NCBI GenBank assembly: GCA_042563095.1 | Contig: JBHPMS010000003.1 | Coordinates: forward strand, 1 to 53,687 | Reading direction: 5' to 3' | Length of the DNA stretch: 53,687 nt | Source of the DNA: Candidatus Margulisiibacteriota bacterium | GTDB lineage: Bacteria > Margulisbacteria > WOR-1 > XYC2-FULL-46-14 | In this document: one piece after another, positions 26,628 through 32,634 of the stretch | How the letters are laid out: every line of letters begins with the position of its first letter | Numbering within the stretch: position 1 is the stretch's first letter | Program-made: the position numbers and the translations under genes | Notes under the pieces: generated by a model | Told to the model about the DNA's origin: nothing | Databases searched by the model: none | What the model saw: the letters and a program-made list of their open reading frames with translations, nothing else

Positions 26628-27746
26628 TTATTTCACCTTCGGCCAGACCAGATCGTAATTCACACTGCGGCCCTGGCCGGGCAATTGGCGCAGGATTTTT
26701 TTGGCGAGCAAATCTGCAATTTCACGAAAGGCGGTGGCGCGGCTGATCTTGGCTATACTGACATACTTGCGAGTAGTCAAGCCGCCGATAAAATTGCCAG
26801 GTCCGGCTTCTAAAATCCGGTTTAAAACTTTCTTCTGATGCCCGTTAAGATCTGCCTGGGCATGCTTATTCCAAAAGTCAACCCGCATAAATATGTTATT
26901 AATAATGTTCCGGGAATGCTCAATCGAAGCAGTAATACATTTTATAAACCAGAGGAACCACTCTGTTGTGTCAGCCCGGCAGCATTGCACATCTTCAAGG
27001 ATTTGATAGTATTGGTTCCTTTTGCGCATTATTTCGGATGAGACGCTGTAAAACCTGACTTTTAAATTTTCATCCTGTGCCAGAGCCATGTCTGTTAAAG
27101 CCCTGGCCAAACGGCCGTTGCCGTCTTCGTAAGGGTGAATTGTTAAAAAACGTAAGTGTGCTGCTGCCGCGCGCAGTACGCCGTCCATGCTCCCGGATGA
27201 TGAATTCCACCATCTTATAAAAAGACGCATTTCCTCACTTAGCTGCTTTTTTGGAACAGCTTCGAAATGAACCTTCTCCTTTCCGATCGGCCCCGAAACT
27301 ATCTGCATCGGTTCATGTCCACGCAGTTTTCCGGCCGCTATTTTACTCAAGCCTGAATATCCGGCAGGAAAGAGCGCCGCCTGCCAACCGTTAAGCCGCG
27401 ATAGCGTTAAAGGTTTATTGTGAAAACGAACAGCCCCCAATAAAACATCCACCAGGCCATCAACTTTCCTGTCGTGGGATCCAACACCGCGCGGCAAACC
27501 GAGTCTTACCGCCACTGACGACCGAACAGTATTTTGGTTAAGTTTTTGTCCTTCGATTTCTGCAGTCCGGATGGCTTCTTCTACCAAAACAGCCCCCTGT
27601 GCTTCTGTTTCAAGCTTAATATCAAGAGAGGCGATGCGCCCCAATAATTTTCCCTGTATGACCCGTAAATGGCTTAACGGTTCGAGCATAATACTGTCGT
27701 CATATTTAAAATCAAACCAGTTGTTACGCTGCCAGAGGTATTTCAT
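26628..27746 (-). CDS. Fic family protein (DUF4172-type N-terminus, C-terminal HTH)
   Basis: HPYEDGNGRLAR Fic motif; N-terminal inhibitory-type TAEIEG motif. Confidence 0.92.
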   Translation of the reverse strand: MKYLWQRNNWFDFKYDDSIMLEPLSHLRVIQGKLLGRIASLDIKLETEAQGAVLVEEAIRTAEIEGQKLNQNTVRSSVAVRLGLPRGVGSHDRKVDGLVDVLLGAVRFHNKPLTLSRLNGWQAALFPAGYSGLSKIAAGKLRGHEPMQIVSGPIGKEKVHFEAVPKKQLSEEMRLFIRWWNSSSGSMDGVLRAAAAHLRFLTIHPYEDGNGRLARALTDMALAQDENLKVRFYSVSSEIMRKRNQYYQILEDVQCCRADTTEWFLWFIKCITASIEHSRNIINNIFMRVDFWNKHAQADLNGHQKKVLNRILEAGPGNFIGGLTTRKYVSIAKISRATAFREIADLLAKKILRQLPGQGRSVNYDLVWPKVK

Positions 27747-27883
27747 GCATTCTCCTCATGAGGCGATTAGGGGTATTAATCGCTTCACTATTTGATACAA
27801 TTATATAACGGTGTAAGTTGGACAGTCAAGCATCTTTTTGGAGGAAGCCTTTACGAATCCTTAACGATATGTTAAAATAAAAT

Positions 27884-28306
27884 ATGTTGTCCTCCCGCCA
27901 GCGTGAAATTTTAGATTTATTAAAACAGCACCAATATTTGCCAGGCCGAGAACTGCAGAAAACCTTAAAAATATCCCGCGCCCGGCTTAATCAATTGATT
28001 GTGCCGCTGATAAAAAAGAGATTAGTAAAAAGTGAAGGTTATGCCCGCGCTACCAGATATCTAATCACCGACAAACGCACTTTTGAGCAGATTAACGCTG
28101 AAAACTGGAAGCTGAGAAATAAAGTTCGTGAGCTAGAAAATACCTTGGAAGACCGCAGGATAATTGAGCGGGCTAAAGAAATACTGATTGCTGAGTTTGA
28201 TATTTTACCGACCGAAGCGTATCGAAAAATGCAGGAGCAGAGCATGGATTCTGGACGTTCAATGCGCAAAATCGCGGATAGAATTTTATCTGCTTATGAA
28301 GTTTAA
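27884..28306 (+). CDS. Winged-HTH plus ANTAR RNA-binding domain fusion
   Basis: N-terminal RQREILDLL...ELQKTLKISRARLNQLIVPLIKKRLVKSEG; coiled coil; RRIIERAKEILIAEF...EAYRKMQEQSM...KIADRIL (ANTAR). Confidence 0.85.
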   Translation: MLSSRQREILDLLKQHQYLPGRELQKTLKISRARLNQLIVPLIKKRLVKSEGYARATRYLITDKRTFEQINAENWKLRNKVRELENTLEDRRIIERAKEILIAEFDILPTEAYRKMQEQSMDSGRSMRKIADRILSAYEV

Positions 28307-28307
28307 A

Positions 28308-28336
28308 TTGAAGCGCAAGCAATAAAATGGTATAAT
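28308..28336 (+). promoter_or_regulatory. Sigma70 promoter upstream of carA
   Basis: TTGAAG-17 bp-TATAAT. Confidence 0.7.
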
Positions 28337-28351
28337 AGGTCAAAAGACAGG

Positions 28352-28376
28352 GACGTCGCAAGACGTCTTTTTTTTT
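28352..28376 (+). terminator. Intrinsic terminator in the carA leader (attenuator)
   Basis: GACGTC-GCAA-GACGTC hairpin followed by T9, between the promoter and the carA RBS. Confidence 0.8.
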
Positions 28377-28400
28377 ATCCTAAGCAAGGAGGAAAGTAAA

Positions 28401-29411
28401 ATGAAAGCAGTCTTAGCATTAGAAGATGGGACCATATTTGAAGGAAAATCTTTTGGGGCAGAGGGAGAGGCATTGGGAGAAATAGTTTTTAATACCCAGG
28501 TTTTTGGTTACCAGGAAATCTTAACTGATCCAGCCTATGGTGGAAAGCTGGTTACGATGGGCTATCCGCAAATCGGGAATGTTGGTATTAATGATAAATC
28601 TTTTGAATCTGATTCTGCCCACGCTAGAGCTCTGGTCATAAAAGAATACAGCCGGATCTATAGTAACTGGCAGGCGACCGGGTCACTTGCAGATTTTATG
28701 AAAAAACATAAAGTTGTAGGGATCGAAGGAATTGATACACGAGCTTTAACGACACATATCAGAGATAATTGGGAGATGAAGGCTATAGTGTCGACCAAGG
28801 ATTTTGATAAAGATTCTTTGGTGGAAAAAGCTAAACAATTCGAACTTCAAACTGCAAACCTCAAATCTCAAAACAAATCAAAAACTCCAAATTCTAAATC
28901 CAAAACCATAATAATAGATTTAGGAGTTAATAATAGTACCCTGGCAAGATATGAAGGAGCAAAAGTTGTGTCTTCTGCTATAAAAGCGGAAAAGATTTTG
29001 GATGGTAAGCCGAAACAGGTGGTTATTTCTTCTGGGCCGGTAGATCCCAGGAAATTAGATGGATTAGTTGAAGAAGTTAAAAAACTGATCGATAAAGTTC
29101 CTATCTATGGAATACAGAATGGTGCCTGTGTCCTGGCTTTGGCACTCGCTTGCCAGGTACATAAGATGAAGGTTGGGCATCATGGAGTAAATCAGCCGGT
29201 AGTTGATCCGAAAACCGGTCGCGGCGAGATTTCAATGCAGAACCACAGTTATGGGATCAAGGAAGTGCCTAAAAGTATTAAAATAGTCCATGTTAATTTG
29301 AATGATAAGACCATTGAAAGGTTTGAGACCAAAGATGGGGCCTGTGTCGGCACACTCTATTTTCCAATCGATGAACGGGGCAAGTTAGATAAAGGATACA
29401 GGAGGGTATAA
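28401..29411 (+). CDS. carA: Carbamoyl-phosphate synthase small subunit with degenerate glutaminase site
   Basis: LALEDGTIFEG, GEIVFNT, YQEILTDPAY, GIDTRALT. GICLG is GIQNG here and QYHPE is LYFPI. Confidence 0.9.
   Translation: MKAVLALEDGTIFEGKSFGAEGEALGEIVFNTQVFGYQEILTDPAYGGKLVTMGYPQIGNVGINDKSFESDSAHARALVIKEYSRIYSNWQATGSLADFMKKHKVVGIEGIDTRALTTHIRDNWEMKAIVSTKDFDKDSLVEKAKQFELQTANLKSQNKSKTPNSKSKTIIIDLGVNNSTLARYEGAKVVSSAIKAEKILDGKPKQVVISSGPVDPRKLDGLVEEVKKLIDKVPIYGIQNGACVLALALACQVHKMKVGHHGVNQPVVDPKTGRGEISMQNHSYGIKEVPKSIKIVHVNLNDKTIERFETKDGACVGTLYFPIDERGKLDKGYRRV
28845..28905. repeat. Degenerate heptamer array in the carA interdomain linker
   Basis: CTTCAAA CTGCAAA CCTCAAA TCTCAAA ... CTCCAAA TTCTAAA TCCAAAA. 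Confidence 0.75.
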
Positions 29412-29412
29412 C

Positions 29413-32400
29413 GTGCCAAAAAGAACAGACATAAAAAAGATCCTAATCATCAGTTCCGGACCAATTGTGATCGGACAGGCGTGTGAGTTTGATTATTCTG
29501 GATCGCAGGCCTGCAAAGCTTTGCGGGAGGAAGGGTATGAGACGGTTTTGATCAATTCAAATCCAGCAACGATTATGACCGATCCGGGGATGGCGGATCG
29601 GACTTATATTGAACCGCTCGAACCAGAATTTATAGAAAAGATTATTATAAAAGAAAAACCGGATGCTCTCCTTCCAACTTTGGGCGGCCAGACCGGACTT
29701 AACATGGGTTTTTTTCTTTCTAAAGCAGGAATTCTACAAAAATACGGGGTAGAAATTATTGGTGCTGATGCTAAAGCAATTGAGCGGGCCGAAGACCGGG
29801 AGAAATTTAAAGAGACGATGGCCAGTATCGGTTTGGATGTTCCAGAATCAGGAACTGTAAATTCAGTTGAGGACGGATTAGTTCTGGGTGAAAAGATCGG
29901 TTTTCCAATTATTCTACGGCCTGCTTTTACTATGGGGGGGGCGGGAGGATCATGTGTCTATAATGTAGATGAATTAAAGAAGGCTTTAGAATATGCCTTA
30001 GAGGTTTCCCCGCTTAAACAGGTTTTAGTTGAAAAGTCTGTTCTTGGCTGGAAAGAGGTAGAGTTCGAAGTTATCCGTGATTGTAAGGATAATGTAATCA
30101 TTGTAACCTCAATGGAAAATATTGATGCGATGGGCGTACATACTGGTGATTCTATTGTAGTTGCTCCCGCTCAGACAATAACTACAGAAGAATTTTTTGA
30201 ATTGGAGAACTGGTGTAAAAAAATTATCCGCGCAGTTGGAATTAATGGTGGCGGCACCAATATCCAGTTCGCAGTGAATCCGGAGAATGGGAAGATCGTA
30301 ATTATTGAGATCAATCCTCGGGTTTCTCGCTCCTCTGCCTTAGCCTCCAAAGCCACCGGCTTCCCAATCGCCCGGGTGGCAGCAAAGCTGGCAATCGGTT
30401 TAAGTTTGGATGAAATAGTAAACCAGGTAACCGGAAAGACCTATACTTATTTTGAACCGACGGTTGATTACTGTGTTTTCAAAGTATGCCGTTTTACTTT
30501 TGAAAAATTCCCGGATGCAGATCCGATTTTAACCACCTCGATGAAAGCAGTAGGAGAGGCAATGTCGATCGGCAGAAACTATAAAGAGTCATTACAAAAA
30601 GGCATTCGTTCGCTTGAATACCGTCGTTTTGGCCTGGGGGCGGATGGCCGTGATGTTCCAGATGAACTTTCAAAAGACCCTGAACTGGTAAAGCAGAAAC
30701 TGGTTTATCCAAATGCTGATCGGATCTTCTGGGTGCGTTACGCGATAAAGAATGGAATGAGTAACCAAGAAATCTTTGAACATTCAAAAATGGATCCGTG
30801 GTTTGTTGACCAGATGCGCCAGATTGTAGAGGTAGAGGAGGAGGTAGTAAAGTATAAGCTTTCAACCATTCCAGATGCGGTTATGTATAAAGCTAAAGAT
30901 ACCGGTTTTTCTGATGTGCAAATTGCGCATCTTGTAAAATCTGACGAGGTTAAAGTATATAACCACCGTAAAAAGAAAGGGATCATGCCCGGTTATAAAT
31001 TAGTTGATACCTGTGGAGGTGAAGTTGATCCAATGAAACCGTATTTTTATTCTACTTATAATAATTCCAAAGATGAAAGCCGTGCAACGGATAAGAAAAA
31101 GGTGATGGTATTAGGAGGGGGTCCCAACCGGATTGGGCAGGGGATCGAATTTGATTACTGTTGCTGTCATGCTTCGTTTGCCCTAAAAGAAGAAGGCTAT
31201 GAAGCGATCATGGTCAATTCAAATCCAGAAACGGTTTCGACCGACTTTGATACTTCTGACCGGCTCTATTTTGAACCGTTAACCCGCGAAGATGTTTTGC
31301 ATATTGTTGAAAAGGAAAAACCGTTCGGTGTGATTGTCCAATTCGGCGGGCAGACCCCGCTTAATATTGCTCACCAATTAGAAGAAGCGGGTGTTCCGAT
31401 TTTAGGAACCTCGGTTGAATCAATTGACCGTTCCGAGGATCGGAAAAAATTCCAGTCTTTGTTAAAAAAACTTAAACTAACTCAACCAGCTAACGATACA
31501 GCAATTTCTTTCGCAGAAGCAAAAAAGGTTGCGGACCAGATCGGTTATCCGGTAGTTGTTCGTCCTTCTTATGTTTTAGGCGGCCGCGCGATGAAAATTG
31601 TTTATGACGAGGGGGATCTAGAAGAGTATATGCAAAAAGCAGTAATTGCATCCCCGGACCGTCCAATTTTGATCGATAAATTCCTGGAAGATGCGGTTGA
31701 AATTGATGTTGATTGTGTTTCTGATGGTGAAGAGTCGATGGTTTGCGGGATTATGGAGCATATCGAAGAAGCCGGAATCCACTCCGGTGACTCAGCCTGT
31801 GTTATTCCTAGTTTCTCACTTTCAAAATCAATGATCAAAGAACTAAAAGAAGCAAGTTATGCACTCGCAAAAGAATTAAAAGTTAAAGGATTGATGAATA
31901 TCCAGTTTGCAGTAAAAGGGAGCAAACTTTATGTTTTAGAAGTTAATCCACGGGCATCGCGTACGATTCCGTATGTTAGTAAAGCAACTGGAATTCCGTG
32001 GGCCAATATTGCAACCAAAGCGATGCTGGGTACTTCTCTGAAAGAATTAGGCGCTAAGGAATTTGTCCCGGAGCATTTTTCGGTGAAAGAAGCAGTTTTC
32101 CCCTTTAACCGTTTCCACGGAGTTGATGCGATTTTGGGTCCGGAAATGAAATCAACCGGCGAGGTAATGGGGATTGATGCTGATCTCGGGATTGCCTACA
32201 TGAAAGCGCAGATTGCGGCCGGGCAAAAACTTCCTTTGGAAGGAAGAATTTTTGTTTCTGTAAATGATCGGGATAAACGCCGGATTGTTGATGTTGCCAA
32301 GCGGATTGCTGCTTTAGGATATTCAATTGTTTCAACCGCCGGGACGGCGGCAGTATTGCGCAAGAACGGTTTAGAGGTTGAAGAAGTAGCCAAATTAGGA

Positions 32401-32634
32401 GAAGGGCGCCCGGACGTCGTAGATCTGATTAAAAATGGGAAGATTCAACTATTAATAAATACGCCCGGAGATAAAAGGACCAAGGTTGACGAAACCAAAA
32501 TCCGCTCTGGTGCAATCATGCATATGATACCGATTGTCACTACACTTGCCGGGGCACGGGCAACGGTGAACGGACTTGAGGCCGCAAAGAAGAAAGGCTT
32601 TAAAGTAAAAGCCTTGCAGGATTACCATAAGTAA
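29413..32634 (+). CDS. carB: Carbamoyl-phosphate synthase large subunit
   Basis: GPIVIGQACEFDYSG, GVHTGDS, NRIGQGIEFDY, GIHSGDS, EMKSTGEVMG; 1073 aa, full length. Confidence 0.98.
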   Translation: MPKRTDIKKILIISSGPIVIGQACEFDYSGSQACKALREEGYETVLINSNPATIMTDPGMADRTYIEPLEPEFIEKIIIKEKPDALLPTLGGQTGLNMGFFLSKAGILQKYGVEIIGADAKAIERAEDREKFKETMASIGLDVPESGTVNSVEDGLVLGEKIGFPIILRPAFTMGGAGGSCVYNVDELKKALEYALEVSPLKQVLVEKSVLGWKEVEFEVIRDCKDNVIIVTSMENIDAMGVHTGDSIVVAPAQTITTEEFFELENWCKKIIRAVGINGGGTNIQFAVNPENGKIVIIEINPRVSRSSALASKATGFPIARVAAKLAIGLSLDEIVNQVTGKTYTYFEPTVDYCVFKVCRFTFEKFPDADPILTTSMKAVGEAMSIGRNYKESLQKGIRSLEYRRFGLGADGRDVPDELSKDPELVKQKLVYPNADRIFWVRYAIKNGMSNQEIFEHSKMDPWFVDQMRQIVEVEEEVVKYKLSTIPDAVMYKAKDTGFSDVQIAHLVKSDEVKVYNHRKKKGIMPGYKLVDTCGGEVDPMKPYFYSTYNNSKDESRATDKKKVMVLGGGPNRIGQGIEFDYCCCHASFALKEEGYEAIMVNSNPETVSTDFDTSDRLYFEPLTREDVLHIVEKEKPFGVIVQFGGQTPLNIAHQLEEAGVPILGTSVESIDRSEDRKKFQSLLKKLKLTQPANDTAISFAEAKKVADQIGYPVVVRPSYVLGGRAMKIVYDEGDLEEYMQKAVIASPDRPILIDKFLEDAVEIDVDCVSDGEESMVCGIMEHIEEAGIHSGDSACVIPSFSLSKSMIKELKEASYALAKELKVKGLMNIQFAVKGSKLYVLEVNPRASRTIPYVSKATGIPWANIATKAMLGTSLKELGAKEFVPEHFSVKEAVFPFNRFHGVDAILGPEMKSTGEVMGIDADLGIAYMKAQIAAGQKLPLEGRIFVSVNDRDKRRIVDVAKRIAALGYSIVSTAGTAAVLRKNGLEVEEVAKLGEGRPDVVDLIKNGKIQLLINTPGDKRTKVDETKIRSGAIMHMIPIVTTLAGARATVNGLEAAKKKGFKVKALQDYHK

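Follow-up and report, generated by a model that had tools for sequence, protein, structure and literature searches.

A 53,687-nt stretch (positions 1 to 53,687, forward strand) of contig JBHPMS010000003.1 of a Candidatus Margulisiibacteriota bacterium (lineage Margulisbacteria; WOR-1; GenBank assembly GCA_042563095.1), referred to below at its full length as the window, carries a three-gene cassette. It consists of a gene for a regulator that combines a winged helix-turn-helix (wHTH)-like domain with an ANTAR domain, a homolog of the carbamoyl-phosphate synthase (CPS) small-subunit gene carA, which we term carA*, and a full-length carB. We found that CarA* is a glutaminase-dead small subunit from which the entire catalytic triad has been lost, that it is nonetheless maintained as a conserved family, and that the half of CarB on which it would dock has diverged with it. 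Our favored reading, held with moderate confidence on the basis of sequence comparisons, is that CarA* and CarB constitute a second CPS that would use free ammonia, as does CPS I of animals, and that would be switched by transcription antitermination.

The CarA* protein and its family

The open reading frame (ORF) at positions 28401..29411 of the forward strand encodes 336 amino acids (aa) in an intact frame, as an earlier note on this DNA had read it, and matches both PF00988 (CPSase_sm_chain; 4.5e-49 over the full model) and PF00117 (GATase, the glutamine amidotransferase domain; 1.7e-20). CarA* is a two-domain CarA homolog, with the CarB-docking N-terminal domain and the class I GATase C-terminal domain that characterize the CarA fold family. 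In phmmer alignments with the Escherichia coli CarA structures, the nucleophile motif GICLGHQ pairs with GIQNGAC. Active-site and tunnel residues of CarA* are numbered after E. coli CarA (382 aa), with residues 5 to 150 and 217 to 344 taken from the phmmer alignment; outside these stretches we use what we take to be the E. coli sequence, with which the 382-aa total and the known residue names are consistent. The triad reads Gln, Phe, and Ile in the window (Cys269 to Gln, His353 to Phe, and Glu355 to Ile). Further substitutions affect other active-site positions (Leu270 to Asn, His272 to Ala, Gln273 to Cys, Ser35 to Gln, Ser47 to Ala, Asn240 to Ser, and Gly313 to Ser) and the tunnel wall (Ala356 to Asp, Ser357 to Glu, Pro358 to Arg, Pro360 to Lys, and His361 to Leu), and the canonical C-terminal helix is missing. 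Thus, the set of triad, glutamine-binding, and oxyanion residues that distinguishes a glutamine-hydrolyzing CPS (EC 6.3.5.5) is not found in CarA*. The genes and motifs concerned are as follows.

28401..29411 (+), carA*, glutaminase-dead CPS small subunit of 336 aa (Pfam, phmmer, alignment, dN/dS, and AlphaFold2 model)
29028..29048 (+), SSGPVDP, oxyanion motif, residues 210-216 of the protein
29109..29129 (+), GIQNGAC, former nucleophile elbow, residues 237-243 (phmmer alignment and E. coli numbering)
29355..29369 (+), LYFPI, residues 319-323
29355..29387 (+), former His/Glu strand and tunnel wall, clade motif LY(F/Y)PIDERGKL
29413..32634 (+), carB, full length, 1073 aa, GTG start; six Pfam domains, with an N-terminal half (29413-31062) of a divergent type, here N*, and an ordinary C-terminal half

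The N-terminal domain of CarA* is 47% identical to that of E. coli CarA and the GATase-like domain 27%, versus 53% and 50% for the same domains of a canonical CarA from a relative, in agreement with the earlier description of a well-kept CarB-binding domain. An AlphaFold2 model of CarA* (predicted local distance difference test [pLDDT], 90.1; predicted template modeling score [pTM], 0.90) superposes with a template modeling (TM) score of 0.88 on E. coli CarA and of 0.82 on the N-terminal moiety of human CPS1, and Foldseek searches seeded with it recover CarA first and then the TrpG, PabA, and GuaA GATases. The only low-confidence part of the model (residues 152 to 162; pLDDT below 50) belongs to the interdomain linker, a low-complexity Lys/Ser/Asn stretch (KSQNKSKTPNSKSKT; residues about 149-169, positions 28845-28905) whose length varies in relatives. 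The NCBIfam carA model scores CarA* at 315.6 bits (537 bits for the canonical relative), and it is because this score narrowly clears the cutoff of 307.35 that database entries for CarA* bear the label "glutamine-hydrolyzing."

A search of 5.8 billion proteins recovered about 90 clusters of CarA* at 63 to 74% identity, with a length of about 335 aa; where named, these come from Margulisiibacteriota, Saganbacteria, or WOR-1, and canonical CarA follows at 44 to 50% identity. The alignment across the clade that the earlier note had called for comprises 85 full-length members, none of which carries any residue of the triad (0/85), so its claim that the whole Cys-His-Glu triad is gone extends to the family. 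The replacements are themselves fixed, with Gln269, Ser313, Leu351, Asp356, Arg358, Lys360, Leu361, and Gln35 invariant in all members. The remaining glutamine-binding and oxyanion positions are likewise changed across the clade (Ala47 in 69/85, Ser240 in 72/85, Asn270 in 83/85, and Cys273 in 80/85, alongside Ser313 in 85/85), Gly293 is replaced by Val or Met in 78 of the 85, and the glutamine-binding loop keeps His312 and Asn311. All three motifs described as altered, GIQNGAC, LYFPI, and SSGPVDP, were located, but what is clade-wide in the last of them is the Asn240-to-Ser change; the Gly-to-Val change occurs in 2/85 and is peculiar to the window's genome.

The carA* gene is under strong purifying selection, and its dead domain is constrained like the N-terminal domain. 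In the sole pair of carA* genes free of saturation (from genomes G001 and G003), the nonsynonymous rate dN is 0.086 and the synonymous rate dS is 1.05 (omega = dN/dS = 0.08), with a per-domain omega of 0.089 for the N-terminal domain and 0.084 for the dead domain. Together with the triad loss in 85/85 and the retained fold (pLDDT 90 and TM 0.88), this bears out the suggestion that CarA* is a pseudo-glutaminase subunit that is kept and not decaying. By alignment, dN/dS, and model, CarA* retains an inactive glutaminase-like domain, as does an ammonia-dependent CPS of the CPS I type (EC 6.3.4.16).

CarB and the genomes that carry the cassette

The carB gene starts, with GTG, one base past the carA* stop codon and is full length, as had been claimed: its 1073-aa product contains all six expected Pfam domains, scores 1623 bits against NF003671, and has the two ATP-grasp halves, the oligomerization domain, and the MGS-like domain of a CPS large subunit. 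By alignment, the two ATP-grasp halves have the same catalytic motifs as E. coli CarB, with residues R129, R169, E215, H243, Q285, E299, N301, and R303 kept. An internal start for a separate C-terminal half (C-half) within the cassette carB was considered and rejected, the Met at the junction not being conserved (Ile in G025 and G135).

The N-terminal half (N-half) of the cassette CarB is 55 to 59% identical to every other N-half, and its C-half is 70 to 79% identical to other C-halves. When 11 cassette CarBs were compared with 19 canonical ones, 39 fixed differences emerged, all of them within residues 14 to 545, i.e., in the N-half that docks CarA, and none in the C-half. In phylogenetic trees, the N* clade has a stem of 0.86 substitutions per site, versus 0.07 to 0.12 for the others, and short internal branches; the cassette C-halves interleave with the stand-alone carB-C genes of relatives, and the cassette C-half is orthologous to the stand-alone C-half of relatives of the same class. 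The fixed changes include Cys232 to Thr, Thr249 to Val, Asp258 to Thr, Arg265 to Glu, Asp266 to Asn, and Met300 to Ile. Kim and Raushel reportedly targeted Arg265 of CarB in 2004, with Pro360 and His361 of CarA, in a mutant with a perforated tunnel wall; these three positions read Glu, Lys, and Leu in the cassette. Cys232 is one of the three ammonia-gate residues, A314-A251-C232 (PMC8674909; CPS1 equivalents in PMC4655335). At the position equivalent to CarA Gly293, a Gln (Gln318) blocks the ancestral tunnel in human CPS1 (PMC4655335), and the Val or Met of CarA* would obstruct it likewise. These patterns suggest that the CarA* pocket and the CarB N-half changed jointly in one burst and were then frozen, and that ammonia entry may have been re-plumbed, with the old tunnel narrowed and its wall and gate altered.

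CarA* (at least 64% identity) is present in 17 of the 146 species genomes of the phylum, all from the window's class and distributed over five families, and the order wHTH-ANTAR gene, carA*, full-length carB is found in 12 of the 13 cassettes examined. The proposed search for an intact second carA was answered by the relatives: at least 12 of the 17 genomes also have a canonical carA (GICLGHQ and HPE). The window's own genome is 52% complete, and such a gene may lie in its missing part. The heading of the earlier note, by which the organism's CarA had lost its triad, does not carry over to these relatives, where CarA* is a paralog beside canonical carA, and CarA* as the sole CarA is probably wrong for most of them. 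The exceptions without canonical carA are the window's assembly, G128 and G134 (76 to 77% complete), and G015 (94%). In G015, the cassette provides the only CarA and CarB, two transcarbamylases are encoded (as in all near-complete genomes), and a search for a carbamate kinase, an alternative source of carbamoyl phosphate, gave nothing above the cutoff; to judge from the gene content, arginine and pyrimidine synthesis in G015 both seem to be supplied by this cassette.

A survey of the class distinguishes four groups, namely, genomes with a split CPS (carA-carB-N and a separate carB-C), those with the cassette, those with an unsplit carAB, and rare mixtures. The cassette group combines carA-carB-N with the cassette and has no separate carB-C. 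This arrangement is found in 12 species genomes from five families that are 86 to 97% complete (G001, G003, G014, G020, G025, G125, G127, G129, G130, G133, G135, and G136; e.g., loci L041-L045 and L065-L067). Their canonical N-half carB is about 545 aa long, and they encode a C-half solely as the fused part of the cassette carB; the missing free C-half in these 12 genomes cannot be an assembly gap. Their stand-alone N-halves look normally constrained and, set beside the N-halves of genomes with a free C-half, show no near-fixed difference except a shorter tail. In G020 and G135, the five genes stand in one row.

Several further observations concern these loci. In G141 (L055, 1636-11316), carA*-carB is directly preceded by an unsplit canonical carAB, and both the ANTAR gene and the leader terminator are missing. 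In G014 (L038, 4454-7720), the carB of the cassette is split into three ORFs, by a frameshift or assembly error or through incipient loss. In the window, a Fic/DUF4172 gene (26628-27746, minus strand) separates ispE from the cassette; in G002 (L046), a canonical carA-carB occupies the syntenic site instead, and the cassette of G025 adjoins the same ispE/accD/accA genes. Elsewhere in the window's own genome, contig C12 (68964-71686, minus strand) carries two adjacent purF-like (amidophosphoribosyltransferase) paralogs, both with an N-terminal Cys.

Glutaminase-dead CarA extends beyond this family: of the 147 closest cluster representatives (50% identity), 83 are without GxCxG, HPE, or both, and such dead forms are thus common among uncultured lineages. 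These lineages resemble CarA* in the loss of the triad next to an intact CarB; two of them (the P0108 and P0092 loci) group with it in the tree, and their CarB partners have 20 to 22 of the 39 N-half substitutions. The clade with QNGAC and LY(F/Y)PIDERGKL differs from them: it is a separate, tightly conserved branch restricted to one class, it has an ANTAR cassette of its own, and its C-half is local in origin. In G146 (L070, 7050-10289), the carB beside the dead carA P0108 is broken by a single in-frame TGA, at which gene callers split it; canonical carB genes for the N-half and the C-half, separate from each other, are likewise present in this genome. A 146-aa gene upstream of the dead carA in L072 was considered as a counterpart of the ANTAR gene and dismissed, as it shows no similarity to the ANTAR protein.

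The regulator and the carA* leader

The part of the cassette upstream of carA* contains the following features.

27850..27878 (+), regulator promoter, TTTACG-17-TAAAAT, with the direct repeat TTTACGAAT-CC-TTAACGATA (promoter scan)
27884..28306 (+), wHTH-ANTAR regulator of 140 aa, with a winged-helix-like N-terminal domain, a coiled coil, and a C-terminal ANTAR RNA-binding domain (PF03861, 8.6e-17)
28308..28336 (+), carA*-carB promoter, TTGAAG-17-TATAAT, with an extended -10 TG (promoter scan)
28346..28357 (+), candidate ANTAR target, GAC-AGGGAC-GUC, with a 3-bp stem and a hexaloop with A1 and G4 (12/12 cassettes)
28349..28379 (+), intrinsic terminator, with a GACGUC stem, GCAA loop, GACGUC, A/U extension, and U9 (terminator scan)

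The regulator gives weak matches to HTH_11, HTH_24, and MarR_2, and its ANTAR domain is similar to those of EutV (6WSH, 1.3e-4), Rv1626, and NasR. Its mRNA is probably leaderless, the -10 box (TAAAAT) ending 5 nt before the ATG. The repeat upstream of the regulator gene, TT(T/G)ACGATT-N2-TTGACGATT, is kept in most of 12 relatives inspected, across families; situated in the -35/spacer region, it is a possible operator, to which the wHTH domain of the regulator itself might bind.

The layout of the carA* promoter is common to 12 relatives, 10 of which have the extended -10 element. Downstream of it, the candidate hexaloop hairpin overlaps the 5' arm of the leader terminator, which folds with -18 kcal/mol (z = -3.5) and is kept in relatives. 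All 12 cassettes conform to G(A/G)(C/U)-A(A/G)(A/G)G(A/G)C-G(U/C)(C/U), in which the stem cells are paired in 36/36 cases and the middle pair covaries, being GC in seven cassettes and AU in five. A1 and G4 are the conserved positions of ANTAR targets, for which a single hexaloop is the minimal requirement (PMC3369931 and PMC8934654). The hexaloop motif occurs a single time in the 1.0-Mb assembly of the window's organism, in which no extra copies of the leader motif or of the promoter repeat were found outside the cassette; one look-alike inside a purM-like coding region of this assembly was dismissed. A scan of the leader against Rfam returned chance-level matches only, with no ANTAR-target family among them. 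The cassette has both an ANTAR protein and a hexaloop that is mutually exclusive with a terminator, as expected of an ANTAR system. The ANTAR control that the earlier note had proposed gains backing from the conserved synteny and from the conserved hexaloop/terminator leader, which suggest that the candidate hexaloop acts as an antiterminator bound by the ANTAR protein: carA* transcripts would stop at the leader terminator unless the wHTH-ANTAR protein stabilizes the hexaloop hairpin, thereby sequestering the 5' arm of the terminator.

Alternative readings and known carbamoyl-phosphate synthases

In the reading that we favor, CarA* would still dock on CarB, without hydrolysis of glutamine, and CarA* with the adjoining full-length CarB would take free ammonia from the cell, in response to whatever signal the regulator presumably senses. 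Several observations weigh against it. Most genomes with CarA* keep an active CarA, such that a supply of ammonia from glutamine via a mixed assembly is conceivable; the window's own genome is only about half complete, and the status of G015 as a genome without canonical carA rests on one 94%-complete metagenome-assembled genome. The former active site is invariant and not relaxed, and a new ligand or new chemistry is possible. No recognizable sensor domain that would point to a signal was found in the 140 aa of the regulator. The leader has one hexaloop with a 3-bp stem, versus the two hexaloops of classical ANTAR targets; a second hexaloop (P1) upstream was not found, the 8 to 15 nt that separate the hairpin from the -10 box being too short and unconserved.

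That carA* is a decaying pseudogene or an annotation artifact has practically no probability left. The closest hints of decay, the low-complexity linker residues 152 to 162 and the broken cassette carB of G014, are countered by a frame that is intact in all relatives, by the roughly 90 clusters at 63 to 74% identity, by a strong ribosome-binding site, by the carA* stop one base ahead of the carB start, and by the omega of 0.08 with invariant residues in 85 members; the relaxed selection that the earlier note would have taken as refutation was not seen in either domain. Its other possible refutation, that the Cys of GAC (position 273) sustains some hydrolysis of glutamine, is very improbable: this Cys is present in 80/85 clade members, but Ile or Gly takes its place in five, including P0002 at 74% identity, His353 and Glu355 are lost in all members, and the elbow position itself is Gln. 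In E. coli, the side chain at position 273 presumably points to the carboxamide of the substrate and not to the acyl carbon (1A9X/1C3O), which we also count against this possibility; as the alignment has it, the nearby Cys is no conserved rescue nucleophile. A new site with a new job, in which the remodeled pocket (Gln269, Asn270, Cys273, Ser313, Asp356, Glu357, Arg358, and Lys360) binds a metabolite, is less remote than these, though doubtful. It might be an allosteric sensor (e.g., of glutamine or another nitrogen signal) or release ammonia from a donor other than glutamine. Such a role would agree with former active-site positions that are invariant in 85 sequences, with a dead domain constrained like the docking domain, and with the retention of His312 and Asn311; however, there is no conserved nucleophile (Cys273 in 80/85 only), the glutamine-holding residues of the E. 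coli enzyme (Ser47, Gln273, Gly313, and Asn240) are changed, and the invariance is equally expected from a new ammonia entry or from an interface with CarB Glu265.

The absence of a free C-half from the cassette genomes raises another alternative, which we rate as unlikely to the same degree: the canonical CarA and CarB-N would use the C-half of the cassette CarB, such that glutamine-fed synthesis stays and CarA*/N*, instead of being an ammonia enzyme in its own right, would serve as a front end of an alternative or regulatory kind. The cell would then have two interchangeable nitrogen front ends (CarA with CarB-N, and the ANTAR-switched CarA* with N*) and one back end, the lineage's sole carbamate-phosphorylating, allosteric C-half, fused to N*, an arrangement that we consider equally doubtful. 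Such sharing is favored by the 12 genomes of five families in which carA-carB-N and the cassette occur without a stand-alone carB-C, by the interleaving of cassette C-halves with stand-alone ones in the absence of any clade-specific substitution, and by the row of five genes in G020 and G135; the likeness of stand-alone N-halves with and without a free C-half, apart from tail length, does not decide between the rivals. Against it, the covalent linkage of N* to the C-half and the need to tunnel carbamate leave no obvious place for a third N-half. Moreover, isolated halves and a 41-kDa archaeal CPS can, as homodimers, catalyze the complete reaction (PMC6022934), such that CarA/CarB-N might need no partner, and the cassette stands alone in G015 and beside an unsplit carAB in G141. 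If the two-front-end arrangement were true, the nitrogen donor would be chosen by antitermination, with one regulated back end, in a modular CPS without described precedent.

An ammonia-using second CPS, which we continue to prefer, can be set against the known enzymes. With E. coli CarA-CarB (type II; PDB codes 1JDB, 1A9X, and 1C30) the cassette has in common the two-gene layout, the two-domain small subunit (TM 0.88), the six CarB domains, and the ATP-grasp residues, whereas it lacks the triad and the C-terminal helix, has changed glutamine-binding residues, and bears the 39 CarB N-half changes; its control by ANTAR antitermination would differ from promoter control of the PepA/PurR/ArgR/IHF type in E. 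coli (PMC6245113). Animal CPS I (human CPS1; PDB codes 5DOU/5DOT) resembles it in keeping an inactive glutaminase-like domain within a CPS and, putatively, in the use of ammonia. However, CPS1 is a single chain in which Ser for Cys is the sole triad loss and the gate Cys is retained, and it depends on N-acetylglutamate, whereas the cassette specifies two chains from two genes, with the whole triad gone, Thr for the gate Cys, and a C-half like ordinary bacterial ones, the allosteric part showing no clade-specific change. The cassette enzyme and CPS1 are of independent origin. The split CPS of the Aquifex aeolicus/Methanocaldococcus type (CarA, CPS.A, and CPS.B; PMC6022934) is exactly what same-class relatives have; the cassette, by contrast, joins the C-half to a divergent N-half that comes together with a dead CarA. 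The EutV/eut, NasR/nasF, and AmiR/ami systems share with the cassette a coiled coil before the ANTAR domain and an A1/G4 hexaloop overlapping a terminator (PMC3369931 and PMC8934654). The cassette differs from known ANTAR systems in that its regulator has a small wHTH-like domain instead of a receiver or ligand sensor, in the single 3-bp-stem hexaloop, which lies within a few nucleotides of the predicted start of transcription, and in having carbamoyl-phosphate synthesis as its putative target.

Reviews present the bacterial ATP-grasp CPSs as all glutamine-dependent type II enzymes and the ammonia-only CPS as the animal CPS I (PMC6022934 and PMC4655335), and our search of the searchable literature found no description of a bacterial CPS with a dead CarA. 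The cassette exposes a systematic misannotation, in that the NCBI carA model names CarA* proteins "glutamine-hydrolyzing," and the cassette genomes without a stand-alone C-half raise the question of how split CPSs are assembled, as the canonical split enzyme should need one. If it uses ammonia, the cassette enzyme would represent a bacterial counterpart to CPS I that arose independently, with a large subunit that has co-evolved at the ammonia gate; it would offer a natural experiment in the re-plumbing of an ammonia tunnel and would add a target from central metabolism to the ANTAR regulon. The use of free ammonia would save the ATP of glutamine synthesis, which is relevant to energy-limited anaerobes.

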